Of a stretch of 64,000 nucleotides of DNA, positions 2,297-35,958 are shown in pieces. Made by a program: the position numbers and the translations under genes. The stretch's first letter is position 1. Each line of letters begins with the position of its first letter. The DNA comes from Patescibacteria group bacterium UBA4473 (GTDB lineage: Bacteria > Patescibacteriota > Gracilibacteria > UBA4473). The notes under the pieces were generated by a model. It worked only from the letters and a program-made list of their open reading frames with translations, had not been told where the DNA came from and ran no database searches. Location: assembly GCA_002389285.1 (NCBI GenBank), contig DGOF01000041.1, positions 22,194 to 86,193 of the forward strand. The letters are read 5' to 3'.

Positions 2297-2310
2297 GCAG
2301 CTCCTTCAAC

Positions 2311-2329
2311 ATTAAATCTAGATTAAATC
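2311..2329 (+). promoter_or_regulatory. Phased direct-repeat box ATTAAATC-TAG-ATTAAATC, about 125 nt upstream of dprA
   Basis: Perfect 9-nt repeat ATTAAATCT at 2311-2319 and 2322-2330, an 11-bp phase. It has the same architecture as the boxes at 22976, 25621 and 26627. Confidence 0.3.
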
Positions 2330-2455
2330 TTTGAGGATTTTTAAAAGTACCGTTATTTTGTCTGAACCTAGATTCTTTGGATTGAAAAGATTTCTTGAAG
2401 ATTTCCATCAAGGTTCATCTTTTAATCAAGCAAATCCGGATTCAGACAAAAAATC

Positions 2456-7813: not shown

Positions 7814-7814
7814 A

Positions 7815-10035: not shown

Positions 10036-10151
10036 AGTAGCGCCATTATGCGGATTCCGCGATTTCAATCAAATCTTTTTAAGAAGTCCAAAATCGCACG
10101 AACTCCTAGTTGCATTTTTCACCAATTTTGGTAAAAAATAAAGTTACCCTC

Positions 10152-13100
10152 ATGCAAAAAGTCGAACGCCTTTTCGCCCAACTTTTAGAAAAAATAAAGG
10201 TCTATCAGCCTCATTTTAATCCAACGCGATTAGAAGAGGCTTTCGCCTTTGCCAAACAAGCCCATCAAGGCCAAACACGTGGATCAGGAGGTCCCTACAT
10301 AGGCCATCCGCTGGCAGTGGCCAGCATTCTTACGGAGTATCAAGCCGAAGAAGACACTCTCATTGCGGCTATCCTTCATGATACCGTCGAGGACATTGAA
10401 CATATTTCGTACCAAACAATTGAAACAAAGTTTGGCACGGTCATTGCCAAACTCGTAGAAGGCGTTACCAAAATCAGCGCCGGCCAAATCAAAGCCTCTC
10501 TTGTCAAAGAGTCCTCCCTCGACAAACCCCATGACGTCGAAACCATTCGGAAAATTTTTCTCGAATCCGACCGAGATATTCGCGTCATTTTGATCAAACT
10601 CGCCGATCGGCTGCACAATATGAAAACGCTCAGTGGGATTAACGACCTAGTCAAACAACGCGTAAAAGCCGAAGAAACCCTCAACATATTTGTCCCCGTC
10701 GCGATGCGGATCGGCATTTGGAAGATGAAAAATGACCTCGAAAAAGAAGTCCTTCATTACCTCTATCCAGAGCAAGAACAAGAAATCCAAACCTTTCTCC
10801 AAAATATAAAATCGAGTCAAAGCCAACTCATTCATCGCCTCATTCATAAAATAGAACACGCGGATGACAAGCAGAAAATTCAAAAAATTCATATCTACAA
10901 GCGCAGTCTTTTTACACTCAAGAAACTCCTTGATCAAGAAAAAAACCTCCATCCGGGGCGAACGTTTAATCTTTTTATCTGTCTCAAAAACGAAGAAACG
11001 TGTTACGCAACACTAAAACTCATCCATCGTCTTTTTCCAACCCGAACTCTGGAAGAAGACTTCATTTCTAATCCTCGCGAAAATCACTACAAAGCCTATC
11101 ACATCAATATCGTCACCCAAGACGGACATAAAGTACAACTCCGCCTGGGAACCCACGACATGTATCTTCGTAGTATGTACGGTATTACCCATGCCGTTTT
11201 TCAAAAAAAAGAAAGTCACTCCAAGGCCAAGTTCCTGATTCCACTCGAACTCCTCAGTAAAAAAACCAAGCATTCTCCCGAGGAATTTCTCGAGGCGGCC
11301 AAGAGTGATCTCCTTCAAGAAAAAATAGAAATTCACTGTGATAATAAACATTATTTTATTCCCGAAGGCGCCACCGCCCTCGATGCCATTTTTCATATCT
11401 ATGGCGCCAAGGCCCTGCATACCACGGAGATTTTTCTCAATAATAAATCCATTCCGTTTAATCAGGAAATCACACACATTGGTGTTTTAAGAGCCGAATT
11501 CAGTCCTCGTCTCACGGTAGAATTCGACTGGTTTTACAAAATAAACACCGCCAACGCCCGCATCGCCATCCAGGAAGCCCTCCAAAAATGGAACTACGAA
11601 AAGAAAGTTGAAGTGGGCCACCAGATTTTACAAAAAGAATTTGATGCACACGAAAAAGGAAAAATAGAACTTCATTTCAAGAAAAAGAATCTTGATGACT
11701 ATTTTGAAGTTAAAAATATCAATGATCTATCCGCCCTCGTAGGAGAAGGACGCCTTAAGCCGTATGATATTTTTCTCAAATGCTTCCCCGAAACGGAAAA
11801 AAATACACTGCAAAAAATAATCGACCACGTTGATAATTTTTTTGGGAAACTCCTCTTCCGGAGAAAAAAAGAACATATTCGATTTCAGCTCAAAAGTATT
11901 GCAGATAAAAAAATAAATATTTTAACGAGGATTCACAAACTTGCCGAAAAATTTGAAATTCTTATATCGAAAATCACATATCTCAAAAAAACGGAAACTC
12001 AGACCTGTTCGATTCAAATCCATTGCTCTTACGAACAAAAAAAAGACTTTCATAAGTTCCAATCGATGCTGGAACAACAAAGCGGAGTGATCAACGTAAA
12101 ACCATTGATGTCGATAAGAAAAAGAGCCTTCTTTCTTCTTTGGCTCATAACAACAATCACCCTTTGGCTGACCTTTCCTCTTTTATTTCACACGATAAAT
12201 CATCTATTTGAGCTCTCTCTTTATGGATCTTTTTTTGCCTGCCTGATGCCTATTCTCCTGGCAAATTATCTTTTATTCAAATTTACGAAAAATCATTTCC
12301 TACAAATAAGAAATACTACGTGGATATTCTTAGCCAATATCATTGTTAATTTCATAGGTATGGGGGCGCTGATGCTGTATTCCACCTACAAAAACATACC
12401 TTTAAATATCTCTTTTATATTTGTAATATTTGCCTGCTTAAATGCAATGTATCTCTACGAATTTTTAATACAAAAAACACACAATCAACCAAGGATCCCT
12501 CAGGTTAATTCTCCCAAAAAAATATCATTCGGAGCTTTTTCAGGAGCTGCTATTGCTATCATTGTTTTAGGAATCAATCCCATTATCATTCGACATTTAG
12601 TACATGATCTAAATATTCCCGTCTCAACAACTATTATATCTCGATTTTTTCTTGGAGGAGGGATTCTTTGGATTATTCACTTTTTCACTCAAAATAAAAA
12701 TCACCCCAAAACCAAATTCACCTATGACTATCTCTTTGGACTCATGGTCTTGGGAATTCTTGGAAATTTCATTCTCTATCACTGGGGCATGAAATATACC
12801 ACCGCCACCAATGCGAAGCTCATGGAAAATTTCACATCCATCATCGTGCTCCTTTCTGCAGGGCTCTTTATTCCTGATTACATTCGAAGAACCAGGGGAA
12901 GCAGTAAAACCGAATGGATCAAAACTTTTATCATTGTCCTTCTGGGATCAGCCGGGATTTCTTTCATTCTCAATTATTTTCCAAAAGGATCGGTTGAAAA
13001 TTATGAAATAAAATTATTCGGAGATTCAATAGAAATTATAGCCACCTTTTTCTTTGCTATGTTTTTCCTCGCACACAACCTTTATGTAAAACAAAATCGA

Positions 13101-13460
13101 CAAATTTCGAGCATAGAAATTATTGCTAAAATGTTTCTTTGTGCCGGTGCATTAGCCCTGCCCTTTATTCTTTGGGAAGGCGTCGGAACCGCATCTCAAT
13201 ATTCATGGAAAGCTCTTTCTTTACTTGGATTTATTGGTATTTTTTCCAGTGGCTTAACCTATGTTTTATGGAGTTTCGTAGCACGAACCCTCGATGTGGT
13301 AACCACTTCACTTCTCTTTAATTTTGCCGTTATCATAACGATCATTGGAGAACATTTATTTTTCGATCTTTCCCTGAATATTCTTCTTTTAATAGGTGCT
13401 ACTTTAATGATATACACAGCCGTAGCAGCAGATCTCATAAATAAAAAACGTCTCTCCTAA
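10152..13460 (+). CDS. RelA/SpoT homologue (HD hydrolase, degenerate synthetase, TGS, ACT) fused to a polytopic membrane region ending in an EamA/DMT transporter domain
   Basis: HD domain: GGPYIGHPLAVASIL...AAILHDTVED...KLADRLHNM. Synthetase-like region with substituted motifs: FNLFICL, KVQLRLGTHDM. TGS-like: FIPEGATALDAIFHIYG. ACT-like block, then about 14 predicted TM helices from about nt 12120, the last 10 with an EamA signature (GLTYVLWSFVARTLDVVTTSLLFNF). Confidence 0.8.
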   Translation: MQKVERLFAQLLEKIKVYQPHFNPTRLEEAFAFAKQAHQGQTRGSGGPYIGHPLAVASILTEYQAEEDTLIAAILHDTVEDIEHISYQTIETKFGTVIAKLVEGVTKISAGQIKASLVKESSLDKPHDVETIRKIFLESDRDIRVILIKLADRLHNMKTLSGINDLVKQRVKAEETLNIFVPVAMRIGIWKMKNDLEKEVLHYLYPEQEQEIQTFLQNIKSSQSQLIHRLIHKIEHADDKQKIQKIHIYKRSLFTLKKLLDQEKNLHPGRTFNLFICLKNEETCYATLKLIHRLFPTRTLEEDFISNPRENHYKAYHINIVTQDGHKVQLRLGTHDMYLRSMYGITHAVFQKKESHSKAKFLIPLELLSKKTKHSPEEFLEAAKSDLLQEKIEIHCDNKHYFIPEGATALDAIFHIYGAKALHTTEIFLNNKSIPFNQEITHIGVLRAEFSPRLTVEFDWFYKINTANARIAIQEALQKWNYEKKVEVGHQILQKEFDAHEKGKIELHFKKKNLDDYFEVKNINDLSALVGEGRLKPYDIFLKCFPETEKNTLQKIIDHVDNFFGKLLFRRKKEHIRFQLKSIADKKINILTRIHKLAEKFEILISKITYLKKTETQTCSIQIHCSYEQKKDFHKFQSMLEQQSGVINVKPLMSIRKRAFFLLWLITTITLWLTFPLLFHTINHLFELSLYGSFFACLMPILLANYLLFKFTKNHFLQIRNTTWIFLANIIVNFIGMGALMLYSTYKNIPLNISFIFVIFACLNAMYLYEFLIQKTHNQPRIPQVNSPKKISFGAFSGAAIAIIVLGINPIIIRHLVHDLNIPVSTTIISRFFLGGGILWIIHFFTQNKNHPKTKFTYDYLFGLMVLGILGNFILYHWGMKYTTATNAKLMENFTSIIVLLSAGLFIPDYIRRTRGSSKTEWIKTFIIVLLGSAGISFILNYFPKGSVENYEIKLFGDSIEIIATFFFAMFFLAHNLYVKQNRQISSIEIIAKMFLCAGALALPFILWEGVGTASQYSWKALSLLGFIGIFSSGLTYVLWSFVARTLDVVTTSLLFNFAVIITIIGEHLFFDLSLNILLLIGATLMIYTAVAADLINKKRLS

Positions 13461-13597: not shown

Positions 13598-13620
13598 GGC
13601 GATTCATTCGCCTTTTTTTT
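13598..13620. terminator. Bidirectional intrinsic terminator between the RSH fusion gene and alaS
   Basis: AAAAAA-GGCGA-ttcat-TCGCC-TTTTTTTT. The A-tract on one side and T-tract on the other serve both convergent genes. Confidence 0.6.
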
Positions 13621-15400
13621 AACCTACAATCGCTTTGATCCGGCGAACCCCTCTTCCACAACTCTCTTGTTTTTTAATCTTAAAACTTCCTAATTGTCCA
13701 AGATGCTCTACATGCGGTCCCCCGCATATTTCTTTTGAGTGCGTTCCCATCGTATAGACTTTGACGGTGTCACCATATTTATGCTCAAAAAATCCCAAAG
13801 CACCAGAATGCTTCGCTTCTTCCACACTCATCTCTTGTAAACTTACCTCTGCATTGGAAGCAATCGCTTCGTTTACATAATCCTCTACGAATTGTAATTG
13901 CTCTGGCGTGAGTTTTTCTTCATGCGAAAAATCAAACCGCAGACGATCGGCTGTAATATTCGAGCCCTTCTGCTGTACATGATCCCCCAAAATTTTACGC
14001 AATGCTGCATGCATCAGGTGAGTCGCCGTATGAAGCTTCACCGTTTCGTCTGATCGATCGGCAAGTCCTCCTGAGAACTTCTCTTCCGCTCCCGATCGGG
14101 AAAGCGCCTGATGGGCTTTATAGGCTTTGTGAAAACCATCTTCATCTACTTCCATATTTTTTTCAGCAGCGAGTTCCACCGTCATCTCAATCGGAAAACC
14201 ATAGGTTTCATAGAGATAAAAGGCTTTATCCCCCGGCATTTTTCCTTCTAATTTTTCAGAAAGTTTTTTAAATTCACGCTCTCCAGACTCAAGCGTCTTT
14301 CGAAACTGAGTTTCTTCGCGCGCCAATTCTTCCAAAATAAAATCCTGCTTTTCTTGGATATTTTTATAAGCCGAACTTAATTTATCAAAACAAGGCGCCG
14401 CTATCTGTATGCACAGATCCTGATCAATCCCTAATTTCCGTCCATGCCGAATCGCTCGACGAATAATACGCCGCAAAATATATCCCTGATCGACATTCGA
14501 CGGTGTCACACCGTCAGAAAGCAATACCACTGATGTTCGCACATGATCCGCGATAACCCGTGAAGAATGATGGACATCCGACTCGGCAATAGGATCCTCT
14601 GCTATTTCTGGATGACCGGACAAATCTGCAATCTTCTGCAAGATATCAGTAAATGCATCCGTCTGATAAACAGACTTTAAGCCATTGATGACCGCGACGG
14701 TCCGTTCGAGGCCCATGCCCGTGTCTATGTTTTTACTCGGTAAGGGCGTCAAAACGCCACTCGCATCTTTATTAAACTGCATAAACACATCATTCCAAAT
14801 CTCCACCCAACGCTCATCCTCCCAAGATTCCTGGAAGCTTTCGGGAGCCGGTTCTTCCCCCGTCCAGTAAAACATTTCTGTATCCGGACCACACGGACCG
14901 GTATCGCCTTTAGCCCACCAGTTTTCAGAGGCCGGAAGAAACGCTATCCGTGACTTGGGCATGCCCACTTCCTGCCAACGATCAGCAGAATACTCATCGC
15001 GAGGCGCATTTTCATCCCCTTCAAAAACAGAGACCGCAAGCTTTTCAAGCGGCAGTTCTAAAACCTTTACGAGAAACTCAAACGACCATTCGATCTGCTC
15101 TTGTTTAAAATAATCTCCCAACGACCAATTTCCCAACATCTCAAAAAACGTCAGATGCGTCGCATCCCCTACTTCATCAATATCAATCGTCCGAATACAT
15201 TTCTGCACGTCTGCCAGACGATTTCCCTGCGGATGAGGTTCTCCCATGAGATACGGCACCAGTGGGTGCATCCCTGAATTATGGAAAAGCGCCGTCGGAT
15301 CATTATCCGGCAAAACCCCCGCACTGGGGATAATCACATGATTTTTAGATTCCCAAAAATCAAACCACTTTTTTCGAAGATCGTCTGTTGTATATTGCAT
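13619..15400 (-). CDS. alaS: Alanine--tRNA ligase, short form (catalytic plus editing domains, no C-Ala domain)
   Basis: Class II AlaRS N-terminus: FHNSGMHPLVPYL, KCIRT, FFEMLGNWS. Editing-domain motifs HTATHLMHAAL and CGGPHV. Ends at GVRRIKAIVG after 593 aa. Confidence 0.9.
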   Translation of the reverse strand: MQYTTDDLRKKWFDFWESKNHVIIPSAGVLPDNDPTALFHNSGMHPLVPYLMGEPHPQGNRLADVQKCIRTIDIDEVGDATHLTFFEMLGNWSLGDYFKQEQIEWSFEFLVKVLELPLEKLAVSVFEGDENAPRDEYSADRWQEVGMPKSRIAFLPASENWWAKGDTGPCGPDTEMFYWTGEEPAPESFQESWEDERWVEIWNDVFMQFNKDASGVLTPLPSKNIDTGMGLERTVAVINGLKSVYQTDAFTDILQKIADLSGHPEIAEDPIAESDVHHSSRVIADHVRTSVVLLSDGVTPSNVDQGYILRRIIRRAIRHGRKLGIDQDLCIQIAAPCFDKLSSAYKNIQEKQDFILEELAREETQFRKTLESGEREFKKLSEKLEGKMPGDKAFYLYETYGFPIEMTVELAAEKNMEVDEDGFHKAYKAHQALSRSGAEEKFSGGLADRSDETVKLHTATHLMHAALRKILGDHVQQKGSNITADRLRFDFSHEEKLTPEQLQFVEDYVNEAIASNAEVSLQEMSVEEAKHSGALGFFEHKYGDTVKVYTMGTHSKEICGGPHVEHLGQLGSFKIKKQESCGRGVRRIKAIVG

Positions 15401-21024: not shown

Positions 21025-22881
21025 TTACGGAAGGATGAAAACATCAAATCCCGCAGAGAAAAGATTCTGCATGTTGTTAATCGAAGTGACATTCGCGGCA
21101 ATAGCCGTGTCTGCATCAGCTTCGTTTTGATCAACATCAGCCTGTAAAGCTGCAACAGCTGCATCTCGGGCTGCTGTTTCCACAGCAATAGCCGCATTTC
21201 GAGCCACTACTTCTGCCGCAAGAGCTGCATCCGCATCCGCTTCGTTTTGATCAACATCAGCCTGCAACGTTGAAACTAACCCCGCATTCGTAGCGATGTT
21301 TGAAGTATTCGTTGAAACCTGTGCCAACCGACTGTCATTAGACTGAACCGCTTTCCCGGCAGCAATTTCACCATCCGCTGCCAATCGAACAATACCCGCG
21401 GTGGTCGTACTTGCGTCCTGGAAGAAGTCCGCACCGGTTTTAACCCATCCGTCACCAGAATTAGCATACGTATAGATTTCTCCCGTTCCGGTCACGTACA
21501 CCGTATCTCCAGAGATAGGAGAAGCATACGTTGTGCTAAGCGCTGAAACCGTAGCAACTGGAGATTTCCAACTCAAGCCCTGAATAGCACTGGAAACCAA
21601 AGTATCAACTTCTGTCTGGGAGTAAGTATCCGCATCCAAAGCTGCAATAGCGGCCGCACGTGCTTCCGCTTCCGCGGTAATAGCCGTACTTCGAGCCGCT
21701 GTTTCTGCTGCAATTGCTGCATCAGCATCAGATTCATTCTGATCAATATCAGCCTGCAAAACCGCATCAGCAGCACTTCGAGCCGCTGTTTCAGCTCCGA
21801 TCGCTGCCAAGTTGGCTGCGATATCCGTATCATTGGCTGCAATAGCCGCTACGTTCGCCGCAATTTCTGCGTCGTTCGCTTGAATCGCTGCTAAATTAGA
21901 AGCAATAGCTGCTATATTCGTAGCGATATCACCATCATTAGCCTGGATCGCTGCCAAGTTAGAAGCAATATTTGAAACATTCGTAGCAATATCTGTGTCA
22001 TTAGACCCAATAGCCGCCAAATTCGAAGAGATATTTGAAATATTCGTAGCGATATCTCCGTCATTGGCCGCAATAGCCGCCAAGTTAGAAGCAATATCAA
22101 CAATCGCCTGTGCGATGTCACTTTCGGCTGTCGTCAATCGCGTATCAAGAGCCGCTACAGAAGAATCAAGATCACCCCCTGTTTTGGCCCAAGCGGAACC
22201 TGAATAGGTGTAGATACGTCCTTCTGAAAACACAAACGTAACATCTCCAGCGGCTGGAGAAGCAATCGCATTCATAGCCGTAAGGTCTGCTACTGGGTCA
22301 AGCCAGCTGTCGTCCGTGATAAGGGAACGATCAAATTTTCCGTCCTCATCAAGATAAGGAATTTCTCCGGCATCAAAACCAAGAGACTTTCCTTCCAAAC
22401 GAGAAGCATTCAATGCATACGGAGTAGCCGAAAGAGATTTTCGGTCAACAGAAGCATTCGTCGGCAAAGTATCTAAGACAAAATAAGCCGTATCAGCCGC
22501 CGAAGTAGCTTTTACTTCTGCCTGAAGGAAACGATGCGTACTGAAATCAAAGTTTGGAAGCGTTGTAACACTTCCGACTTCAGCCGTAAAAAATCCTTGT
22601 GCATCTGTTGTGATCGAAGTCACTTCCTGCCACGCCGAGCCCACGAGCGCGCCACTTCCATCAACATCCGAACCCGCAGAAAAATCTGCATCAGCCCAAA
22701 TAGAGAAACGAATAGAAAAACTTTGATTAGCTGCCGCCGTGGTTGCACTCGTCAACAATCGCCCTCGAAAGGGAACTGTTGTTGCTACCGCTGCTTCAGC
22801 CTGGAGAGGTGTGGCAATGAAGCTCGTAATGAGCATCGCTGCCAAGACCCCCCCGTGAAACCGGGTTGAAAACATTTTCAT
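21025..22881 (-). CDS. Secreted fibre-like repeat protein (tail-fibre-like N-module, W..PV modules, Ala/Asn/Asp coiled-coil repeats)
   Basis: The ATG at 22881 gives the signal peptide MKMFSTRFHGGVLAAMLITSFIATPLQAEA. There are 4 x 21-aa repeats IASNLAAIxANDxDIATNxxx, three LQAD[IV]DQNE[SA]DAD repeats, and the segment ASTTTAGIVRLAADGEIAAGKAVQSNDSRL. Confidence 0.75.
   Translation of the reverse strand: MKMFSTRFHGGVLAAMLITSFIATPLQAEAAVATTVPFRGRLLTSATTAAANQSFSIRFSIWADADFSAGSDVDGSGALVGSAWQEVTSITTDAQGFFTAEVGSVTTLPNFDFSTHRFLQAEVKATSAADTAYFVLDTLPTNASVDRKSLSATPYALNASRLEGKSLGFDAGEIPYLDEDGKFDRSLITDDSWLDPVADLTAMNAIASPAAGDVTFVFSEGRIYTYSGSAWAKTGGDLDSSVAALDTRLTTAESDIAQAIVDIASNLAAIAANDGDIATNISNISSNLAAIGSNDTDIATNVSNIASNLAAIQANDGDIATNIAAIASNLAAIQANDAEIAANVAAIAANDTDIAANLAAIGAETAARSAADAVLQADIDQNESDADAAIAAETAARSTAITAEAEARAAAIAALDADTYSQTEVDTLVSSAIQGLSWKSPVATVSALSTTYASPISGDTVYVTGTGEIYTYANSGDGWVKTGADFFQDASTTTAGIVRLAADGEIAAGKAVQSNDSRLAQVSTNTSNIATNAGLVSTLQADVDQNEADADAALAAEVVARNAAIAVETAARDAAVAALQADVDQNEADADTAIAANVTSINNMQNLFSAGFDVFILP
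21847..22098 (-). repeat. Four tandem 63-bp (21-aa) coding repeats inside the fibre gene
   Basis: IASNLAAIAANDGDIATNISN / ISSNLAAIGSNDTDIATNVSN / IASNLAAIQANDGDIATNIAA / IASNLAAIQANDAEIAANVAA, read directly from the translation. Confidence 0.8.
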
Positions 22882-22975
22882 GTTTGTTTGGGTGTGTAAA
22901 AAAATAAAATTATGAACGCTTAGGCAGATATAACCGATTAAAGGATGGCCCAATTTAAGTCAATAAATACATGAT

Positions 22976-22994
22976 AAATTAATGAAAAATTAAT
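22976..22994 (-). promoter_or_regulatory. Phased direct-repeat box ATTAATTT-TTC-ATTAATTT, about 95 nt upstream of the fibre gene
   Basis: On the minus strand the half-sites are at 22987-22994 and 22976-22983, an 11-bp phase and the same orientation as the gene. Confidence 0.3.
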
Positions 22995-23091
22995 GTAGAG
23001 TAATTAAAGACCCATAAATCCTATTTATAGAGCCGGTTAACTCTATTTTTATCTCGTCATGGTGGCAGTGGATAAGGGATAAAATGAAGCA

Positions 23092-24624
23092 TTAGTAAGT
23101 TCTAAAGCCTGATAAAAAATAATCAGACGAGCCCTGCAGTGCCCAAAAAGGTTTGAGCCCATCAGTGCCAAGAGAATAATCAGAGGTAAAGTCCACAAGC
23201 GTCCGGATAGACTGGTCCCAATCATCCGCATCAACTTCATCAATAAGCCATTGCTGACTAGATCGATCCTTCGTTGGACGAATTTTGACGCGGTAAAAAG
23301 TTTCTGCACGCCACGGTTCGGTTCGCTGATAAAGGTCATACCATTCCGAACCATCCTCAGAATGACCAAAAAGTTTATTATCAATATTTTCTCCTTTCAA
23401 AAATAATCCTGTACGAACGCCCTGAAAGGTCTGTGTTTTTTGATTCTGAAGTTCGAAACTCTCATCCGCGAGTCCGAACATCATGTGACCCTTCATATTG
23501 CCGGTATAAACCACAAATTCAAAAGTACTATGTTCACGAGGATTGAATAACCCCCGAGGAAAAGACAAACCATAGTCCCAACGTTTTTTCCCCGATGTTT
23601 TTATGCGAAGACCGTGAAGAGAATCCTGATGAAAAGTTACCCCAGAAGTCCGTTCGATCTTGAGATCTTTCAAACGCGCATATCGAAGATCAACCCAAGA
23701 ATTATCCTGAAATCTTCCGGGCAACTCATGATCCCCAAAGAGAGATCGAAGAGATCCATCCTTCATCCCCACGTAATATTCTTTGTTGGTCGAATCCCAA
23801 TAAAAAAGACCGGGTGTCCCCGTTCCCTGTTTGTGAACCAAAAGCAACGAACGATAGCTGTAAGATCCTTGAGTCGGCACAGGAGCCGGGGCTGTCGCGC
23901 TAGATGCCGATTGAACAGAATTCCAAGAATCTCCATTAAAAACCCGCAAATCCTGATCGGATACCACATAACGAACCTCTCCCACCTGCGCATTTTCTAG
24001 ATCAAGATCTTCTGACGTTGCCACCGGATGTTTCCAAGAAGAATCTTCGATTTTCGCCTCAACCGTTTCCATTCGCTCTTCCAAAGAAGAAAGTAATGTC
24101 TTCACACTTCCCGGAAGAACAGATTCTGAAATCTCTCCATCTTCATTCAAAGTCGGAACATTGGCGGATCCAGAGTTATCGCCTCGAAAAGGAAGCGTCA
24201 CCAAATGAATCCGATCGACAATAGGATTCTCTGGTTGAGGGTCTAATATTGTATAATCTAACTCCAATGCCGGGCGCGCATCTAACTGAAGATACTGATA
24301 CGTATCAAAATTAAAGGGAACCGGAAGCGCGTTTTGCGTCCCAACACGAATTTCAAAATTTCCACCGGACCCTGTGTCCACCGAATGAACTTCGGTCCAG
24401 AAAGCTTTCGAAACATCTTGCGGATCAAAAGCATTCGCATCCGCATCCGTCCATAAGCTTACTCGCATATCAAAAAATCCATGGCGAGGACGCAGATCCT
24501 TATCAATTACACGCCCCCTCATGACAAAGTATTGTGGATTTGTCAAGGCTTGTGCGGGTTGAGGCGTCTGGATAATTGCGAACATAAAAAGAAAAATGAA
24601 AATGAAAAAACTTTTTTTCATCAA
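23092..24624 (-). CDS. Secreted protein: fibre-like N-module paralogous to 21025-22881, plus an unknown ~270-aa C-terminal domain
   Basis: Signal peptide MMKKSFFIFIFLFMFAIIQTPQPAQA. Shares the RGR[LV]...R[FV]S[IL]W[AT]DAD...W.EV.S...G.F...VG...LP..F[DN]F...[YF]LQ module and a WKHPVA...GEVRYV...FNGDSW module with the downstream gene. Confidence 0.75.
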   Translation of the reverse strand: MMKKSFFIFIFLFMFAIIQTPQPAQALTNPQYFVMRGRVIDKDLRPRHGFFDMRVSLWTDADANAFDPQDVSKAFWTEVHSVDTGSGGNFEIRVGTQNALPVPFNFDTYQYLQLDARPALELDYTILDPQPENPIVDRIHLVTLPFRGDNSGSANVPTLNEDGEISESVLPGSVKTLLSSLEERMETVEAKIEDSSWKHPVATSEDLDLENAQVGEVRYVVSDQDLRVFNGDSWNSVQSASSATAPAPVPTQGSYSYRSLLLVHKQGTGTPGLFYWDSTNKEYYVGMKDGSLRSLFGDHELPGRFQDNSWVDLRYARLKDLKIERTSGVTFHQDSLHGLRIKTSGKKRWDYGLSFPRGLFNPREHSTFEFVVYTGNMKGHMMFGLADESFELQNQKTQTFQGVRTGLFLKGENIDNKLFGHSEDGSEWYDLYQRTEPWRAETFYRVKIRPTKDRSSQQWLIDEVDADDWDQSIRTLVDFTSDYSLGTDGLKPFWALQGSSDYFLSGFRTY

Positions 24625-25610
24625 GAAGAAAAAAACAAAGGACGAACTCGGCGATCATAAAAATCGACGAAGAATTCCTCTTCGGAAAGAGTGAAATAAA
24701 AACCAACCATAAAAAACACAACCATCAGAAAGCCAAACAAGGCACTCAACACCTGAACTTGTTTTTGTTTTTTTTGATAATGAGCAATTTCCAAATCAAG
24801 ATTTTCCCAACTCGTAAGGTAGGTTTCAAGCGATCGTGAATCATGAGGCGCTGAAGACGCTAATGATAAAGTCTTTAATTTCAAGAGCCCTTCTTTGCGA
24901 TCTCGCTGATCCGCTTCCACACGATCTTCAAGCTGATTCAACATGTTACGAATCGAAAGAATCGTTTCCTGAACATCCGAAGAAGATGAGGACTTCTTCG
25001 ACAATCGCGGAACGGATCGAACCACCGGTTTAGATTTCTGTTTTTGAATCTTTTGAATCTTTGGAGCCGAAGCAACTTCTCGTGGGATTATTTTTGGCAA
25101 AGGATTTATCACCGGAGGCGTTACGACCAAAACAGGTTCCGAAAGAATCGGCGCCGAAGGCTTCGGCTCCATAACAACTTTTTCAGAAGATACTGATGGC
25201 CGCCGCGATCCACGATAAACTAACAAGTCTCCCGGGACCTTGTCAGAAGATCCTCCCGAAGTTCCCAATATTGTCTGTGAAGGAGGCACCACTACCGGCT
25301 CCTCTACAACAACTTCTTCTGTCGAAGTCACCGGATCTAAAAAAGAAGGAAGTACCCAAGAAGTATTATCTTCATAATCTGAAAGCGCCTCCCAAGAACC
25401 TAAAAGCGCAGATTGATCTCCCACAACCCAACTCGTATGTTCTTCATAATCACTCACATCATAAGACAAAGACGCGGGAAGAACATATTCTGAAAGTTCT
25501 AATTCCGTTCCTACTTCCTGTGCATGAACAGAAACCATCGAAAATAATAATCCGACACAAAGAGATCCCCAGCCTTTTGAAAACATAATTTTCAGGAGGT
25601 GATAAATCAT
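24621..25610 (-). CDS. Type-I membrane protein (signal peptide, acidic repeats, Pro-rich spacer, coiled coil, C-terminal TM anchor)
   Basis: The ATG at 25610 gives the signal peptide ...LLFSMVSVHAQE. SDYE[ED].TSWV occurs twice. A PVVVPP/PP-rich linker is followed by the C-terminal helix VLSALFGFLMVVFFMVGFYFTL. ATGA overlap with the next gene. Confidence 0.7.
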   Translation of the reverse strand: MIYHLLKIMFSKGWGSLCVGLLFSMVSVHAQEVGTELELSEYVLPASLSYDVSDYEEHTSWVVGDQSALLGSWEALSDYEDNTSWVLPSFLDPVTSTEEVVVEEPVVVPPSQTILGTSGGSSDKVPGDLLVYRGSRRPSVSSEKVVMEPKPSAPILSEPVLVVTPPVINPLPKIIPREVASAPKIQKIQKQKSKPVVRSVPRLSKKSSSSSDVQETILSIRNMLNQLEDRVEADQRDRKEGLLKLKTLSLASSAPHDSRSLETYLTSWENLDLEIAHYQKKQKQVQVLSALFGFLMVVFFMVGFYFTLSEEEFFVDFYDRRVRPLFFSS

Positions 25611-25620
25611 TGTGTTAAAT

Positions 25621-25639
25621 ATTAAATTTTCATTAAATC
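25621..25639 (+). promoter_or_regulatory. Phased direct-repeat box ATTAAATT-TTC-ATTAAATC in the divergent promoter region (about 100 nt upstream of the SLH-like gene, 11 nt from the ATG of the minus-strand operon)
   Basis: Half-sites at 25621-25628 and 25632-25639. The second half-site matches the box at 2311. Confidence 0.3.
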
Positions 25640-25739
25640 TAAACATTTTACCAAATCCAGAAGAATCACGCAAGTCCTTTTGTTTGCCAAAAGAAATCTC
25701 ATGCCCTAGAAAGCAACGTGAATCTTATCTTTTTTCTCC

Positions 25740-26591
25740 ATGCAAACATTTCACCAACGCTTCCGAGTCTTGATCATAGGCACACTTCTTCTGCCTTCAT
25801 TAACCCTCGCAGGGGTTCCTTTTAAAGACGTCGTAGAGAACCACCCGGCCTATAAAGCCCTTACCAAATATCATGCCCAAGGCATCTTCAATGGCATGGA
25901 AGGACAAGCCCGTCTTGATGACGGAATTTTAAAACAACATGCCATCTTGTTTTTGCTCAAAGCACTGGGTGCCCCTCCCACAAATAACGAGGCCATCGCT
26001 CGAGGAATCATAAAAGCGGCTCCCGAATCCAACCAATATCTCACCCATGCCGAATATATAAAGATGCTCAGTCTGGCATTTAAAGTTCCAACCGAAAGCC
26101 CCCAGAAACCCGGTGATGCAACACAGCCATGGTTTGTTAAACCCTATGTCGTAGCCCAGAGCATTACCGCGGTCAAAGAAGAAAAGCCTTTTGATTTTGC
26201 CACGCGAGGATTTGTCCTGAGAACCACCGAAATTTATGAACGAATCTTTGCGGCCACAGACGCAGCGGCACTTATGGACGAACAAGAACTCCGACTTATG
26301 ACCACCCGAGACCTTCTGGTCGATACAAAAGCCGCTCATGAAGATATCCAAAAAATCATATGGATAAATATTATTGAAACCGAGAACATCCCTGATAGTG
26401 CACGACTCAGAGCCATTAAATATTTCAATATGGCAACACTCGTCCTCTTTGAACTCCGTCGAGAACCCTCCATTGATCTTCGTCCAACATGGGAAGGCCG
26501 CTTGCAAGTGTTTCTTGATAAAGCCGTAAAAAATCTCCCCGAAAGCAAACCTTTTTCCGACGACCTTGCAAGAATAGGGAAAAGTCAATAG
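25740..26591 (+). CDS. Secreted protein with an N-terminal SLH-like (S-layer homology) domain
   Basis: Signal peptide ...LLLPSLTLAG, then FKDVVENHPAYKALTKYHAQGIFNGMEGQARLDDGILKQHAILFLLKAL, which follows the SLH pattern (F.DV...HWAY..I..L...GI..G). Confidence 0.55.
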   Translation: MQTFHQRFRVLIIGTLLLPSLTLAGVPFKDVVENHPAYKALTKYHAQGIFNGMEGQARLDDGILKQHAILFLLKALGAPPTNNEAIARGIIKAAPESNQYLTHAEYIKMLSLAFKVPTESPQKPGDATQPWFVKPYVVAQSITAVKEEKPFDFATRGFVLRTTEIYERIFAATDAAALMDEQELRLMTTRDLLVDTKAAHEDIQKIIWINIIETENIPDSARLRAIKYFNMATLVLFELRREPSIDLRPTWEGRLQVFLDKAVKNLPESKPFSDDLARIGKSQ

Positions 26592-26654: not shown

Positions 26655-27395
26655 ATGAAATTTAAGGATATATTTGAAAAAAGTACTGTTAAAAGACTCT
26701 CCGTGCTTCCTTCTTCCTCCGATCCTTCTCTTAAAAACAATGGCCCTGACGTCTTTTGGCGCTCAGCGGGTCATCAAATGAAAACCTCATTGAACCTCAT
26801 TGCCTACCGAATGCAGGAACTTTTGGAAGATCCCGATCCGCAGAAAAAAGAAGAAATACAAGAAGAGATGCAACATCTATCATCACTCCTCTCTGGAGCG
26901 CTGTCTTTTTCCCGTTCGGGACAAATGAGTCAAGACATCGCACCACCCCAATCTATTGATTTTGGAAAAGCACTTCAACGCATCATCCAGAAAGCCCTTC
27001 CCGCAAAAGATCAGTCCCGCGTCCAGATTCATATTCCGAAAGAAATTATCATCGCAGAAATCAATGAAGCTTCTTTCTCAGAAGCTTTCCGTGCCGTCCT
27101 CGAAAATGCCCTCTCCTACAGCCAAGGACATTCCGTTGAAATCAACCTCACCATTGAAAAAAAGAAAATACTCCTTTCTATAAAAAACGAAGGCTCTTTT
27201 CTCGCCCCTTCTCAAAGCAAAGACATATTCAAACCCTTCTTTCGCGGAGACTCGGATCTTCCCGGAACGGGACTTGGGCTCTCCATAGCTCAACGTATTA
27301 TTGAGCAACACAACGGCCAAATTGAAGCTAAAAGCGACGGAGCTCATTGGACGGAATTCGTTTTCACACTTCCGTTGATTTCTCTCGTAAAATAA
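26655..27395 (+). CDS. Soluble histidine kinase (HisKA plus HATPase_c only; no TM or sensor domain)
   Basis: Atypical H-box FWRSAGHQMKTSLNLI, N-box AVLENALSY, and G-boxes GTGLGLSIAQRIIEQHNG. Only about 35 aa precede the H-box. Confidence 0.8.
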   Translation: MKFKDIFEKSTVKRLSVLPSSSDPSLKNNGPDVFWRSAGHQMKTSLNLIAYRMQELLEDPDPQKKEEIQEEMQHLSSLLSGALSFSRSGQMSQDIAPPQSIDFGKALQRIIQKALPAKDQSRVQIHIPKEIIIAEINEASFSEAFRAVLENALSYSQGHSVEINLTIEKKKILLSIKNEGSFLAPSQSKDIFKPFFRGDSDLPGTGLGLSIAQRIIEQHNGQIEAKSDGAHWTEFVFTLPLISLVK

Positions 27396-27409
27396 ATTAA
27401 TTTTGTCCC

Positions 27410-28093
27410 ATGCATATTCTGGTCGTCGAAGATGAGCCGCGCGTGCGAATGGTTCTTTCTAAATATCTTTCTCGCCAAAACTTCACAGTCAGTGAGGCCA
27501 TTGATGGCACTGAAGCGATAAAAAAAGCAAAAAACAATGACTATGACATCATATTGCTCGATCTGATGCTGCCCAAAAAATCAGGATTTCAAGTAATAGA
27601 AACCCTTCGAAAAAAAAACGTAACAACTCCTATCTTAGTCGTCTCTTGTCTCGAAAGCCTTGAAGACAAAGTCAGCGCCCTCAATCTTGGCGCCGATGAT
27701 TATGTCGTAAAGGAATTTGATCTTGATGAAATATTAGCGCGTATAAAAGCACTCCTCCGACGACCTTCTACGCAGCGCAGTAATATTTTTACGTATGGAA
27801 CGCTCAGTCTCGACCTCTCTCTGATGCAAGTTCGTATGGGATCAACAGAGGTTGCCCTCTCCAAAAAAGAGTTAGGAATTTTAGTCGAACTGATAAAATC
27901 CCCCGAAACCGTTATCTCTCGAAAAAAAATCATCAGCACTGTTTGGAACGATCAACAAAACACACAATATTCTAACACGGTTGATGTTCATATGGGGTCC
28001 CTTCGCACAAAATTAAGACAGGCTTCATCCGGCAAAGAACTCATTCACACCGTTCATGGACAGGGCTACATTTTAAGTGAAAAAAACAGTTGA
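27410..28093 (+). CDS. OmpR/PhoB-family response regulator (receiver plus winged-helix)
   Basis: ILVVEDE, DIILLDLMLPKKSG (phospho-Asp), and the C-terminal LSKKELGILVELI...VDVHMGSLRTKL...IHTVHGQGY. Confidence 0.9.
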   Translation: MHILVVEDEPRVRMVLSKYLSRQNFTVSEAIDGTEAIKKAKNNDYDIILLDLMLPKKSGFQVIETLRKKNVTTPILVVSCLESLEDKVSALNLGADDYVVKEFDLDEILARIKALLRRPSTQRSNIFTYGTLSLDLSLMQVRMGSTEVALSKKELGILVELIKSPETVISRKKIISTVWNDQQNTQYSNTVDVHMGSLRTKLRQASSGKELIHTVHGQGYILSEKNS

Positions 28094-28172
28094 TCTTTTC
28101 CCTGGACATCGTTTAAACTAACGCCGATCAATACTTTGACGTCTTTTTTTTTAACGCCAAGCCTTTTTCTCT

Positions 28173-28850
28173 ATGCTCTCAACAACGGGTTCTCAAACAA
28201 AAAAAAAATCCCACTTTTGGCAATCTTTGCGGCATGAACTCAAGACACCTTTGGTAAACATAAAAGCCCTCCCACAACTCATCGAATGGGAAAAAATAGA
28301 CGGCGATAACAAGCTCTTTTTAGAAGAATCTCTCTCTGCTGCCCAAGAACTCGGGACAAAAATGGATCGTATTTTTGAGGCCTGGCAACTCGAAACCGAG
28401 CCCCTCACGATTCAAACAGAAATTATCACCCTCGAAGCATTTATAAAAAACATTCATCCGCCTAAAAATCTTTGCATTCACTATCCAAAAAATCTAACTC
28501 AAAAAATAAAAGTCGATGTTCCACTCATGCGAAAAGCCTGGAAAGAAATTATAAATAATGCTGCTTTTTTCAATACAGAAGAATCAAGACTTCATATTAC
28601 GGTGACCAAAGAAAAACAAAAAATAATCATGAAATTTCAAGATAATGGAATCGGGATTGCTCCAGAACACCAAAAATCTATTTTTGACATGCTTTTTGTC
28701 GTTTCAAAAAGTCGAAACCAAGTCGAATCTGGAACCGGTGTAGGCCTTGCTATCACACAGCATATTATTCAGGCTCACGGAGGAACTATTGAAGTCACTC
28801 AAAGCGAAAAAAACAAAGGAACAACTCTTCAAATAGAAATACCCACCTAA
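28173..28850 (+). CDS. Second soluble histidine kinase (HisKA plus HATPase_c only)
   Basis: Canonical H-box FWQSLRHELKTPL, N-box IINNAAFF, DNGIGI, and GTGVGLAITQHIIQAHGG. No TM segment. Confidence 0.85.
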   Translation: MLSTTGSQTKKKSHFWQSLRHELKTPLVNIKALPQLIEWEKIDGDNKLFLEESLSAAQELGTKMDRIFEAWQLETEPLTIQTEIITLEAFIKNIHPPKNLCIHYPKNLTQKIKVDVPLMRKAWKEIINNAAFFNTEESRLHITVTKEKQKIIMKFQDNGIGIAPEHQKSIFDMLFVVSKSRNQVESGTGVGLAITQHIIQAHGGTIEVTQSEKNKGTTLQIEIPT

Positions 28851-31696: not shown

Positions 31697-33460
31697 CTAC
31701 AGCCCCGCAACCTCCGTCGCCACTTCTCTCTGCAAGGCTTCGAATTTATCAATTTCTTCGTTTTTGAATTCTTTCATACGAGCGATTTTTTGAATCACAG
31801 AAAGTTCTTCAAGCTTACTGAAATCAAATTCTTCTCGATCAGCCAAAGCATCTAAAGCCGTGTTATACAAAGTTCCGATAGTCTTAAGCATATGATACTG
31901 CTTATCAAGACTGGTGTACGCATCATCAGGATTAAACGAATCCTGGTAGAGGAAGTCCTCTCGAATCGCTTTTGAAGTCAAAAGCACCAATCGTTCTCGG
32001 AAGCTCAAGGCATCCGGTCCCACCAATCGCACGATCTCTTCTAATTTAGATTCTTCCTGCAAAAGCGTCATGGCCAAAGCCCGCACTTCCCAGTAATCAG
32101 CCGCAACATTTTCTTTCATGTAACGCTCAATATTTGGCGTATAGAGAGAGTAACTTTTCAACCAGTTAATGGCCGGAAAGTGACGCTGGTAAGCAAGCTT
32201 CGCATCCAGTCCCCAGTAGGTCTTCGTCACACGCAGCGTGTTCTGACTCACCGGTTCGGAAAGGTCTCCTCCTGGAGGAGAAACCGCTCCGATCACCGTA
32301 AGCGAACCTTGTCGGTCATCCGATCCAAGACAATCCACCGCGCCAGCACGTTCGTAGAACTCCGCTGTTTTTGATCCTAAATAGGCTGGATATCCTTCTT
32401 CCCCCGGCATTTCCTCAAGACGTCCTGAGATCTCACGCATGGCTTCAGCCCATCGTGACGTAGAATCTGCCATAAGCGCCACGTTGTATCCCATGTCTCG
32501 ATAAAACTCAGCAATGGTGATTCCTGTATAAACCGAAGCTTCACGAGCCGCTACGGGCATATTAGATGTGTTAGCGATCATGATCGTTCGACGCATAAGG
32601 GGGTCGCCTGAGTTTGGATCGATCAAGTGAGGAAATTCATTCAACACTTCCGTCATTTCATTTCCACGCTCACCACATCCGATATACACAATCACCTGCG
32701 CATCACAATATTTTGCCAAAGTCTGCTGCGTCACTGTTTTTCCAGAACCAAACGGTCCAGGAATACAAGCCGCACCTCCTTTTACAAGAGGAAAGAATGA
32801 ATCAATAGAACGACATCCTGTTTTAAGAGGCAGATCTGGAACTCTTTTTTGTGCCATTTTTCGAGCAATACGAATGGGCCAGAACTGTCGCATAGAAACA
32901 TCATGCACTTTTCCTGCCTCATCTTTCAGTCTCGCAATCATTTCCGTCACATTAAAATGTCCGGATTCAATTTTTTCTACGTTCGCATTCACAATACCCA
33001 CGGGCACCATGACTTTATGCAAAATCAACGTCGTTTCCTGAACCGTTCCCAAGACATCTCCTTCACTCACCCTATCACCAACACTGACCGATGAAACAAA
33101 ATCCCATTTTTTATTTTGGTCCAATCCATCAGCTTCGACTCCTCGTGCCAAATAGTGTCCAGATTTTTCTTCCAACGTCGCCAAAGGGCGCTGAATCCCA
33201 TCGTAAATAGACTCAAGAAGTCCGGGTCCAAGTTCAACCGACAAGGTCTGTCCGGTAAGAACCACTTTTTCTCCCGGCCCAATACCCGCCGTTTCTTCGT
33301 AGACCTGAATGGAAGCATGTCCATCCTCAAGACGAATCACTTCGCCCACAAGGCCTTCTTCTCCCACACGGACAACTTCGTACATTTTGGCCTCTTTCAT
33401 ATTATTGGCCACGACCAGGGGACCAGAAACTTTAACGATAACGGGGGTTTGTTCGGACAT
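31697..33460 (-). CDS. ntpA: V/A-type ATPase catalytic subunit A
   Basis: P-loop GPFGSGKTV, and GCGERGNEMTEVLNEFP, ANTSNMPVAAREAS, SRWAEAMREIS. 587 aa with no intein-sized insert. Confidence 0.95.
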   Translation of the reverse strand: MSEQTPVIVKVSGPLVVANNMKEAKMYEVVRVGEEGLVGEVIRLEDGHASIQVYEETAGIGPGEKVVLTGQTLSVELGPGLLESIYDGIQRPLATLEEKSGHYLARGVEADGLDQNKKWDFVSSVSVGDRVSEGDVLGTVQETTLILHKVMVPVGIVNANVEKIESGHFNVTEMIARLKDEAGKVHDVSMRQFWPIRIARKMAQKRVPDLPLKTGCRSIDSFFPLVKGGAACIPGPFGSGKTVTQQTLAKYCDAQVIVYIGCGERGNEMTEVLNEFPHLIDPNSGDPLMRRTIMIANTSNMPVAAREASVYTGITIAEFYRDMGYNVALMADSTSRWAEAMREISGRLEEMPGEEGYPAYLGSKTAEFYERAGAVDCLGSDDRQGSLTVIGAVSPPGGDLSEPVSQNTLRVTKTYWGLDAKLAYQRHFPAINWLKSYSLYTPNIERYMKENVAADYWEVRALAMTLLQEESKLEEIVRLVGPDALSFRERLVLLTSKAIREDFLYQDSFNPDDAYTSLDKQYHMLKTIGTLYNTALDALADREEFDFSKLEELSVIQKIARMKEFKNEEIDKFEALQREVATEVAGL

Positions 33461-33475
33461 AAAAAAAATAAATTA

Positions 33476-33838
33476 TTAACTTAAGATATCACTTCCAATC
33501 GCTCTCTCAACAATTTTAGAAAGTCGTTTGACGGAGAAACTATCCTTTCCTCCCTTTGAATCAGGAGATGGAACCGGGATCACTGCCGGTAAAGATTTTT
33601 TGGCCAAGCGCTCCAGAAGATCTTCCGGGAGCGTCTTGTAATAGGTTTCTTCAACAAAAATAACGGCATACTCAGCGGTTTGTGCCTCATCTCCTCGATG
33701 ACGCCCCATAAGATCCACAACAACATTGCGGGCTTCTTCATCTGAAAAAACAGAAAACACTTCTGTTCCCAATGCTCGAAAGATGAGCACCGAACTTTCA
33801 TTTCCAATCACCGCCAACTTAAAAGATTGATCACTCAT
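33476..33838 (-). CDS. V/A-type ATPase subunit F
   Basis: 120 aa. KLAVIGNESSVLIFRALGTEVF...YAVIFVEE is typical of subunit F. Its position between C and A matches Enterococcus-type operons. Confidence 0.7.
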   Translation of the reverse strand: MSDQSFKLAVIGNESSVLIFRALGTEVFSVFSDEEARNVVVDLMGRHRGDEAQTAEYAVIFVEETYYKTLPEDLLERLAKKSLPAVIPVPSPDSKGGKDSFSVKRLSKIVERAIGSDILS

Positions 33839-33841
33839 GGT

Positions 33842-34849: not shown

Positions 34850-34852
34850 AGT

Positions 34853-35410: not shown

Positions 35411-35436
35411 AATAAAAAAATTTAAGAAAGAAGAAC

Positions 35437-35934: not shown

Positions 35935-35958
35935 AATAAAAAGAATAAAAAAATAAAA

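Follow-up and report, generated by a model that had tools for sequence, protein, structure and literature searches.

The mosaic adhesive trimer (MAT) fibres of Bdellovibrio bacteriovorus are host-encoded and trimeric and carry variable, lectin-like tips, and in their proteins a signal peptide precedes a conserved, beta-rich N-domain of ~130 amino acids (aa) that has no homologue in the PDB and is proposed to bind the cell surface (PMC10769870). Bacterial surface fibres assembled from phage-fibre-like modules are of an already known kind, and MAT fibres would be the closest known design, as a functional parallel, to two of the proteins described here. These proteins are encoded in a stretch of 64,000 nucleotides from Patescibacteria group bacterium UBA4473 (contig DGOF01000041.1; hereafter the window, meaning the whole stretch that was analysed), where three co-directional minus-strand genes, g1, g2 and g3, lie beside a divergent gene, g0. 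On balance, and with moderate confidence, we read g0 and g1-g2-g3 as a cassette of exported proteins, specific to Candidatus Peribacteria, that provides cell-bound trimeric fibre adhesins.

In this reading g2 and g3 would each form homotrimers, since the coiled coil of g3 matches only trimeric proteins and a 40-residue motif found in both, which we call the W module, matches a three-chain structure (7chu). The N-module shared by g2 and g3 would serve as the base at the cell-proximal end and hold both proteins to a component of the envelope, for which the acidic Trp motifs of g1, the C-terminal domain of g0, or a general wall or S-layer element are the docking candidates. The variable C-terminal ends would point outward. 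The target of the lectin-fold domain of g2 would be a glycan carried by a partner cell or particle, and g3 would be a longer fibre beside g2. Attachment to a partner cell is a plausible, putative role. An earlier note on this DNA had divided the products into an anchor, a receptor-binding subunit and a stalk; the last two of these do not separate in this way, as g2 and g3 carry an identical base layout of N-module, linker and W module. The shared layout therefore points to two parallel fibres rather than to a tip on a stalk, and for the same reason a g2 tip seated on a g3 stalk was ruled out.

The likeness to MAT fibres is one of layout. In both cases the proteins are host-encoded and have a signal peptide and then a conserved beta-rich N-domain without a PDB homologue, and in both MAT fibres and the wider N-module family phage-like body parts are combined with variable C-terminal tips, including lectin folds, in a large repertoire of paralogues belonging to an organism that has to make contact with other cells. 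For example, g2 has a ConA-like tip, and among N-module paralogues Laminin_G_3, TIG, Tectonin and other domains are found, much as tips vary in MAT fibres. The bodies differ, however: those of MAT fibres are intertwined beta-prisms or beta-helices, many with an S74 chaperone-protease, whereas the body of g3 consists of an Ile/Asn coiled coil and W modules, and Pfam found no Peptidase_S74 domain in g2, g3 or 75 N-module proteins. No Bdellovibrio MAT entry occurs among the 19 PDB matches of the g3 profile at E up to 1. A further difference is that the Peribacteria fibres are accompanied by dedicated neighbours, g1 as a putative membrane tether and g0 as a putative SLH protein.

The trimeric autotransporter adhesins (TAAs), such as YadA, SadA, UspA1 and EibD, resemble g3 in their long coiled-coil stalk, in Asn at core position d, in their repetitive units and in their variable length. 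Unlike them, g3 has no YadA-type beta-barrel anchor and no YadA head or neck domains, and it begins with a plain Sec signal peptide; the YadA-like barrel PF03895 gave no Pfam match in g3 at E up to 1. Identification of g3 as a TAA was rejected because it lacks a barrel anchor, its C-terminus being an 11-residue tail.

What appears to be new here is the occurrence of surface fibres made of phage-fibre-like modules in a lineage of the candidate phyla radiation, together with two putative envelope partners and a lineage-wide base domain. The host, a small uncultured bacterium of groundwater type, is presumed to be single-membraned because SLH proteins are common in the related loci, and the W module and the Asn-core coiled coil are re-used behind Sec signal peptides in this reduced-genome bacterium, extending a pattern first shown for Bdellovibrio. 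We know of no cultured Peribacteria, and literature searches, none of them directed at culturing in particular, yielded no description of Peribacteria cell attachment; for their cultivated relatives, the Saccharibacteria, the attachment literature found concerns type IV pili. The passages considered here of a published Peribacteria genome analysis report extracellular proteins that are large and often rich in cysteine, as well as S-layer genes, a sortase and pili, but hold no mention of the cassette (PMC4736985).

The features of the locus, with positions in the window, are as follows.

25740 to 26591, plus strand: g0, predicted secreted protein of 283 aa, divergent from g1 (open reading frame and synteny)
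25818 to 25970, plus strand: SLH-like domain of g0, residues 27-77 (Pfam SLH and PDB profile)
25611 to 25739, no strand assigned: divergent intergenic region between g0 and g1, presumed promoter site
24621 to 25610, minus strand: g1, predicted type-I membrane protein of 329 aa
25419 to 25454, minus strand: acidic Trp motif 1 of g1, SDYEEHTSWVVG, residues 53-64
25347 to 25382, minus strand: acidic Trp motif 2 of g1, SDYEDNTSWVLP, residues 77-88
24687 to 24752, minus strand: predicted C-terminal transmembrane helix of g1, residues 287-308 (Kyte-Doolittle)
23092 to 24624, minus strand: g2, putative short fibre, 510 aa from TTG or 509 from the ATG at 24621
24205 to 24546, minus strand: N-module of g2, ~residues 27-140 (BLASTP against g3; hidden Markov model, 175 bits)
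23923 to 24039, minus strand: W module of g2, SWKHPVATSEDLDLENAQVGEVRYVVSDQDLRVFNGDSW, residues 196-234
23734 to 23817, minus strand: mini-module of g2, TPGLFYWD..NKEYYVG..DGSLRSLFG, residues 270-297 (alignment and model)
23095 to 23700, minus strand: ConA-like domain (L-type lectin fold) of g2, ~residues 309-510 (AlphaFold2, AF2, and Foldseek)
22882 to 23091, minus strand: g2/g3 intergenic region, 210 bp, AT-rich
21025 to 22881, minus strand: g3, putative long fibre, 618 aa
22438 to 22797, minus strand: N-module of g3, residues 29-148 (beta-sandwich in the AF2 model)
22189 to 22308, minus strand: W module 1 of g3, residues 192-231 (three short strands and then a helix in the model)
21613 to 22188, minus strand: coiled coil 1 of g3, ~residues 232-423 (heptads and PDB profile)
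21893 to 22097, no strand assigned: 63-bp tandem repeat in the g3 stalk (Tandem Repeats Finder)
21445 to 21573, minus strand: W module 2 of g3, residues 437-479 (profile against 7chu_A)
21325 to 21414, minus strand: g3 motif ASTTTAGIVRLAADGEIAAGKAVQSNDSRL, residues 490-519, conserved across the g3 family
21028 to 21060, minus strand: C-terminal tail of g3, FSAGFDVFILP, residues 608-618

Putative fibre proteins of a chromosomal cassette

The case for a common base begins with the alignment of g2 and g3, which BLASTP matched at E 5e-19 over ~230 residues comprising the N-module, the linker and the first W module. The earlier note had recognised a shared N-terminal module; the sharing stands, and the length then given, ~110 aa, does not. 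The N-module itself takes up ~120 residues right after the signal peptide and is followed by the linker VDR...A.NA..L.G....G.IP.LD..G. An AF2 model of g3 residues 29-262, built from a 20-sequence alignment, reached a mean predicted local distance difference test (pLDDT) score of 82 and places the N-module in a beta-sandwich of five main strands, behind which come an extended linker, a W module of three strands and then the first part of a long helix. When the N-module model was compared with the PDB, no match reached 1e-3, and the best were Ig-like repeat domains of Gram-positive adhesins (E ~0.01); since these are generic adhesin repeats above that threshold, no fold family was assigned. Similarly, no match in BFVD reached 1e-3, where the best hits were unnamed fibre-like proteins together with very short, very close matches fitting the W module, and a pattern scan of IMG/VR revealed no viral relative of the N-module.

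The W module follows the pattern SW..PVA...G[DE]V.[FY]V.....[IL]..[YF].G..W and, exactly as first counted, occurs three times across the two proteins, once in g2 (196-234) and twice in g3 (192-231 and 437-479). Searches of the PDB with single sequences returned marginal matches only, and family profiles were required. With the g3 family profile W module 2 matched residues 4-53 of 7chu_A at E 7.4e-8, as against E 0.01 for the single sequence. The structure 7chu is gp18 of Geobacillus virus E2 (GVE2) (PMC11058221). Its gene in GVE2, ORF18, comes after ORF17 and a short way downstream of the gene for the tape-measure protein, and in gp18, as in g3, the W module is followed by a helical segment. 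Weak tblastn matches to the W module were also found in phages of Geobacillus, Exiguobacterium and Alicyclobacillus.

These likenesses raise the question of whether the genes are the tail-fibre remnant or satellite of a prophage, a tailocin or a gene transfer agent, with the particle itself encoded at another place in the genome. In favour are the match of the W module to a siphophage tailspike protein, the likeness of the g3 coiled coil to that of the tail needle gp26, and the weak matches in g3 homologues to DUF2793, a domain that appears in gene transfer agent papers. Nevertheless, g1-g3 have Sec-type signal peptides, whereas virion fibres assemble in the cytoplasm, and g2 and g3 further differ from phage tail fibres and tailspikes in having neither a virion-attachment N-terminus nor a beta-helix depolymerase body. 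PHROGs returned nothing significant for g1-g3, whole g3 gave no tblastn match in 50,697 phage records, and likeness to phage genomes does not extend beyond the 40-residue module. The absence of phage context, already remarked on for the nearer surroundings, extends to the full window: no capsid, terminase, tape-measure or baseplate gene was found by Pfam among the larger open reading frames (ORFs) checked in its 64 kb, and related loci likewise lack phage structural genes. Those larger ORFs encode housekeeping functions, among them SecY, DprA, LepA, Pth, a recombinase of XerC/D type, RelA/SpoT and the alanyl- and aspartyl-tRNA synthetases (AlaRS and AspRS), as well as homoserine dehydrogenase, a two-component system, MutY, a V/A-type ATPase, FtsK, the histidyl-tRNA synthetase HisRS and YidC.

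The distribution of the genes leads in the same direction. All four are found together in L001/L002/L011, L003, L005 (on a 962-kb contig), L006, L009 and L016, and partially in L004/L010, where g3 is missing, and in L008, where g0 is not nearby. The flanking genes differ between the loci and include rpoB, SecA beside ribosomal proteins, a type I restriction-modification system and AlaRS. When one genome per species was scanned, five loci were recovered, and each of them carries the title Candidatus Peribacteria. The same gene set with differing housekeeping flanks, in Peribacteria only, therefore marks a chromosomal, lineage-specific cassette and not a prophage; the synteny recurs across Peribacteria genomes with g0 included, and the earlier view that the genes are host-encoded is borne out. 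Given the lack of phage genes, the signal peptides and the differing flanks, a prophage or tailocin origin was rejected, and we regard it as extremely improbable.

For fibre adhesins, structural evidence comes from g3, for which ~15 full-length homologues were identified. Its order is signal peptide, N-module, linker, W module 1, coiled coil 1, W module 2, the ASTTTAGIVRLAADGEIAAGKAVQSNDSRL motif, coiled coil 2 and tail. The long coiled coil that had been noticed in the sequence is indeed present, with residues 256-360 forming 15 uninterrupted heptads that have Ile at a and Asn at d (IxxNxxx), which we take to be the ion-sequestering "N at d" pattern of trimeric autotransporter stalks. In PDB searches the stalk part of the g3 profile matched the tail needle gp26 (4lin, E 3e-6) and TAA fragments (2wpr, E 1e-5; 2wpq, E 1e-4), and also UspA1, EibD and fibritin; all stalk matches are trimeric coiled coils. 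Part of the heptad stalk is encoded by the 63-bp tandem repeat (3.3 copies, 77% matches, score 249), whose unit corresponds to 21 residues or three heptads, and stalk length differs among homologues. At the usual rise of 0.15 nm per residue, coiled coil 1, with ~190 residues, would measure about 30 nm; the g3 fibre as a whole would be longer, and g2 fibres would be shorter and knobbed. Phage-type fibres whose coiled coil is shared with g3 have no N-module; in the single case inspected, P0056, the protein starts differently and without a signal peptide. Thus, of the tail-fibre-type motifs recognised at the outset in g2 and g3, the W module and the coiled coil hold up as such, and the shared N-module, having no viral match, does not; the ASTTTAGIVRLAADGEIAAGKAVQSNDSRL motif is presumably also of phage tail-fibre type.

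Most full-length g3 homologues end in S.GFDVF[IV] followed by LP, VDF or INF, a tail that fits no known sorting signal and could be a docking strand. DUF2793 (PF10983) did not match g2 or g3 of the window; in g3 homologues the matches cover the C-terminal half of the model only, with 21.8-33.4 bits against a cut-off of 27 bits. PF26696 ("PTL_trimer") appears in precomputed tables for g3 homologues, mostly as faint matches, and our guess is that its position corresponds to the W module.

The second fibre protein, g2, has relatives in 7 clusters among 5.8 billion proteins and is ordered as signal peptide, N-module, linker, short helix, W module, three-strand mini-module and ConA-like domain. Many columns of the mini-module are invariant (G272, F274-D277, Y283, V285, G286, L292, L295 and F296), and in the model its strands span residues 274-277, 282-286 and 292-294. 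Although the AF2 model of g2, based on 7 sequences, had an overall pLDDT of 59, the mean over 10-residue blocks was mostly ~75-90 in residues 310-510. Foldseek matched this C-terminal part to legume lectins, ERGIC-53, Emp46p and other ConA-like domains in the PDB, with E 3e-5 to 1e-4, a TM-score to the target of 0.45-0.56 and 8-13% identity, and Pfam at E up to 1 found no Lectin_legB, Lectin_leg-like or Laminin_G_3 domain in g2. The model therefore assigns the C-terminus, at fold level, as a ConA-like jelly-roll, and the original suggestion of a beta-sandwich or lectin distinct from the end of g3 was right at that level. A ConA-like jelly-roll also ends a filament-forming protein in PilC of S. 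sanguinis (7oa8), related in fold to L-type lectins such as the legume lectins and ERGIC-53; in PilC the carrier is a pilin, whereas in g2 it would be a fibre, and the likeness is at fold level only.

Candidate envelope partners g1 and g0

The three minus-strand ORFs span 21025-25673. The ORF of g1 extends over 24621-25673 with a preferred start at 25610, and that of g3 over 21025-22953 with a preferred start at 22881; for g1, g2 and g3 the starts were picked as those yielding plausible signal peptides. By inspection and hydropathy each N-terminus has a basic n-region, a hydrophobic h-region and an AxA-type site, with putative cleavage at ...SVHA|QE in g1, ...PAQA|LT in g2 and ...PLQA|EA in g3, and the co-directional arrangement with signal-peptide-like N-termini noted at first sight is in agreement with both ORFs and hydropathy. 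The junction of g1 and g2 reads TTGATGA, so that the TGA stop of g1 overlaps the TTG start by 4 nt or the ATG by 1 nt, and called coordinates of the two genes overlap by 4 nt in L001, L002, L004, L005 and L006 as well. The two genes are translationally coupled, as had been claimed, though not through a literal ATGA. A three-gene operon is only partly upheld: g1 and g2 belong together, and g3 is set apart from g2 by 210 AT-rich bp and may have its own promoter. A sigma-70 promoter and terminator scan found sites no more numerous than in shuffled sequence, so no promoter or transcript structure was assigned.

A regular-expression search found no LPXTG motif or lipobox in g1, g2 or g3, and hydropathy showed no membrane helix beyond the signal peptide in g2 or g3, so retention of the two fibres on the cell would need protein or wall binding. 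There are no cysteines in g0, g2 or g3. Pfam, PHROGs and NCBIfam for g1-g3, and NCBIfam also for g0, returned nothing significant, and none of the four proteins falls in a curated family.

This lack of a covalent or membrane anchor signal is what one would expect if g2 and g3 were released or loosely bound glycan-binding proteins, serving substrate capture, aggregation or biofilm formation, with g1 being no anchor at all. The ConA-like domain of g2 would suit such a role, and N-module proteins do exist without g1 or g0 neighbours. We nonetheless judge it quite improbable, as the stop-start overlap of g1 and g2 is conserved, the four genes are co-conserved, and hundreds of paralogues have the N-module immediately behind the signal peptide, which would suit a shared retention module.

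For cell-bound fibres, g1 is a putative anchor. It consists of a signal peptide, two acidic Trp motifs, a low-complexity spacer rich in Pro, Val, Ser and Lys, the juxtamembrane stretch TYLTSWENLDLEIAHY, a transmembrane helix and a short tail. The helix (residues 287-308) reaches 2.36 in Kyte-Doolittle windows of 19 residues and is the sole such segment outside the signal peptide. The predicted topology is N-out, C-in (type I), with the long spacer outside the cell, and of the type-I membrane protein first described the two acidic Trp motifs, the spacer and the single C-terminal helix were seen again. The same architecture is found in the gene before g2 in L001, L003, L004, L005, L006, L008 and L016, even though the identity of g1 homologues is only ~30% between the closest genomes. 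Near the mature N-terminus these homologues have 1-4 copies of [DE]-rich x(0-2)[TS]W[VI][ILV][GP] (L001, L003, L004, L006 and L016), which is degenerate in L005 and L008, and the family plan further includes a spacer rich in Pro, Thr, Ser and Lys, a juxtamembrane L.SWE..EDI..Y, one helix and a short basic tail.

The cassette had been described as three genes, and a fourth conserved member, g0, had been overlooked. The product of this divergent gene begins with a signal peptide, has one SLH-like domain and further comprises a conserved domain of ~200 aa; relatives occur in 7 clusters among 5.8 billion proteins. In L001/L002/L011, L003, L004/L010, L005, L006, L009 and L016 the gene neighbours the cassette on the other strand. 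Pfam SLH matches five of the seven family members (best E 1.7e-4), and the g0 family profile matches the SLH domain-containing PDB chains 8bys, 8bz2 and 8bym with E 2e-4 to 0.02. As in these SLH-anchored wall proteins, one SLH domain stands right after the signal peptide, and the matched PDB proteins also align over one SLH stretch only; g0 differs from SLH-anchored wall proteins in that it has no beta-barrel and not three tandem SLH repeats, the domain being a single stretch at residues 27-77. The remaining ~200 aa have no detectable relative beyond the 7-cluster family. As a candidate wall anchor, g0 is equal to or better than g1.

In the metagenome-assembled genome binchicken_co65_50 (Peribacteria) two g0 copies are located on separate contigs, L012 and L013, both at or near a contig end, so that companion fibre genes cannot be judged.

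The SLH domain of g0 is also the starting point of the main rival to an adhesin function, in which the cassette is an envelope scaffold: g0 would be bound to the wall, g1 would be a membrane tether whose spacer spans the wall, g3 would be a strut holding an S-layer or outer layer at a fixed distance, and the g2 lectin domain would bind the wall glycans of the cell itself. SLH proteins are common in the related loci, g3 ends in a conserved short tail and not in a globular tip, and the passages considered here of the published genome analysis describe a heavy investment of Peribacteria in envelope polymers and S-layer genes (PMC4736985). In addition, identity to the closest relative is 66% for g0 and 76% for g3 (56% for g2 and 30% for g1), and the first two values are above those of a typical fast-evolving receptor binder and of the neighbouring kinase (50%); in more distant loci g0 has 35-53% identity. 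A scaffold is nevertheless unlikely in our view. The cassette is rare, as the 7 clusters each for g0 and g2 attest, and it is incomplete in L004, which lacks g3, and in L008, where g0 is not nearby, which would be unexpected for a core scaffold. Moreover, stalk length varies through the 63-bp repeat, and the variable C-termini of N-module proteins (lectin-type, TIG, Tectonin) are typical of interaction repertoires.

The N-module family and the role of the cassette

To define the family of the shared base, a profile of N-module and linker was searched in 1.84 billion representative proteins, which revealed at least 664 clusters at E up to 1e-3, with 328 of them at E up to 1e-10. The N-module stands right behind the signal peptide in most clusters and is elsewhere internal or in tandem, with up to eight matched stretches, and C-terminal parts vary across the family. 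Most of the proteins have no Pfam domain; the few that do carry DUF2793, Laminin_G_3, TIG, Tectonin or a collagen-trimerisation domain. All members with a source name belong to Candidatus Peribacteria or Peribacteraceae. The N-module thus appears, by these searches, to be a Peribacteria-expanded domain and not a phage-like one.

Several paralogues and fibre-like genes were encountered in related loci. Just upstream of the cassette in L001, a collagen-like GXY protein (3-1769) carries the repeats ATWYNGSG...DNDFYLD..TGDYYKK..GTW, and next to it lies an N-module paralogue (1800-3365; BLASTP E 4e-6 to the N-terminal region of g3) that continues into different repeats. A further fibre cluster is located at 8001-12631 of L022, from the same sample as L006; it includes a 966-aa protein in which the N-module precedes approximately eight W modules in tandem and a C-terminal domain rich in Cys, and a neighbouring Cys-rich repeat protein of 574 aa with a precomputed match to PF26696 "PTL_trimer".

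A more far-reaching idea, which we put forward tentatively and think doubtful as it stands, is that the N-module family is a host- or partner-recognition repertoire of Peribacteria, a counterpart of the MAT fibres that either evolved independently or is anciently shared, with g1 and g0 as docking partners. If true, the cassette would exhibit the envelope docking partners that MAT studies lack, namely an acidic-Trp tether in g1 and a trimeric g0 with a single SLH domain. With the cassette comes a set of candidate attachment proteins that is defined and conserved, and the N-module family supplies a far larger one; definition of the N-module and the W module would better annotate many "hypothetical" Peribacteria proteins.

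Several observations weigh against our interpretation of the cassette as cell-bound trimeric fibre adhesins. Trimer formation, surface retention and fibre orientation are all features that we infer. The N-module genes in L021 and L022 have ordinary chromosomal surroundings, and neither they nor the L001 paralogue (1800-3365) are accompanied by genes like g1 or g0, so that g1 cannot be a general partner of the N-module; also, the copy number of the g1 Trp motifs does not follow the number of fibres. The SLH score of g0 in the window, 18.5 bits, is below the Pfam cut-off of 20.8. The end of g3, its conserved hydrophobic 11-residue tail without a globular tip, is odd for a distal adhesive part, and the fibre may have the reverse orientation, with the C-terminus docked and the N-module distal. 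For g2, ConA-like folds are also found in non-lectin proteins, and the match has 8-13% identity and no Pfam domain behind it; the g2 orthologues P0005 and P0007 are without the lectin domain.

Other genes around the cassette

Directly beside g0, at 26655-28850 on the plus strand, an OmpR-type response regulator is encoded between two short histidine kinases of 246 and 225 aa. Both kinases consist of HisKA and HATPase only, with no sensor or membrane domain among their Pfam matches. These two-component genes were considered as part of the cassette and rejected, as a kinase adjoins it only in the window and, next to g0, in L016; in L006 a response regulator is found downstream of g3, and the other loci have neither. 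At a distance of a few kb downstream of g3, the window (13619-15400, minus strand) and L005 (13092-14888) each have a short AlaRS (593-598 aa), which hints at a wider conserved neighbourhood.

Three plus-strand ORFs of the window, at 43780-45768, 49177-50274 and 50362-51825 (662, 365 and 487 aa), had no Pfam match at E up to 1e-5. Twelve kb from the cassette, at 7782-8735 on the plus strand, is a tyrosine recombinase of XerC/D type (Phage_integrase with a SAM-like N-domain), which is surrounded by housekeeping genes, with no other mobile-element gene nearby. Subunits A, C/AC39, E, the c proteolipid and I of a V/A-type ATPase are encoded at 31697-37986 on the minus strand. Finally, a 1116-aa ORF at 10110-13460 on the plus strand combines HD and synthetase regions of RelA/SpoT type (Pfam HD_4, RelA_SpoT and RelA_AH_RIS) with a C-terminal membrane domain of the EamA transporter family, an unusual fusion.

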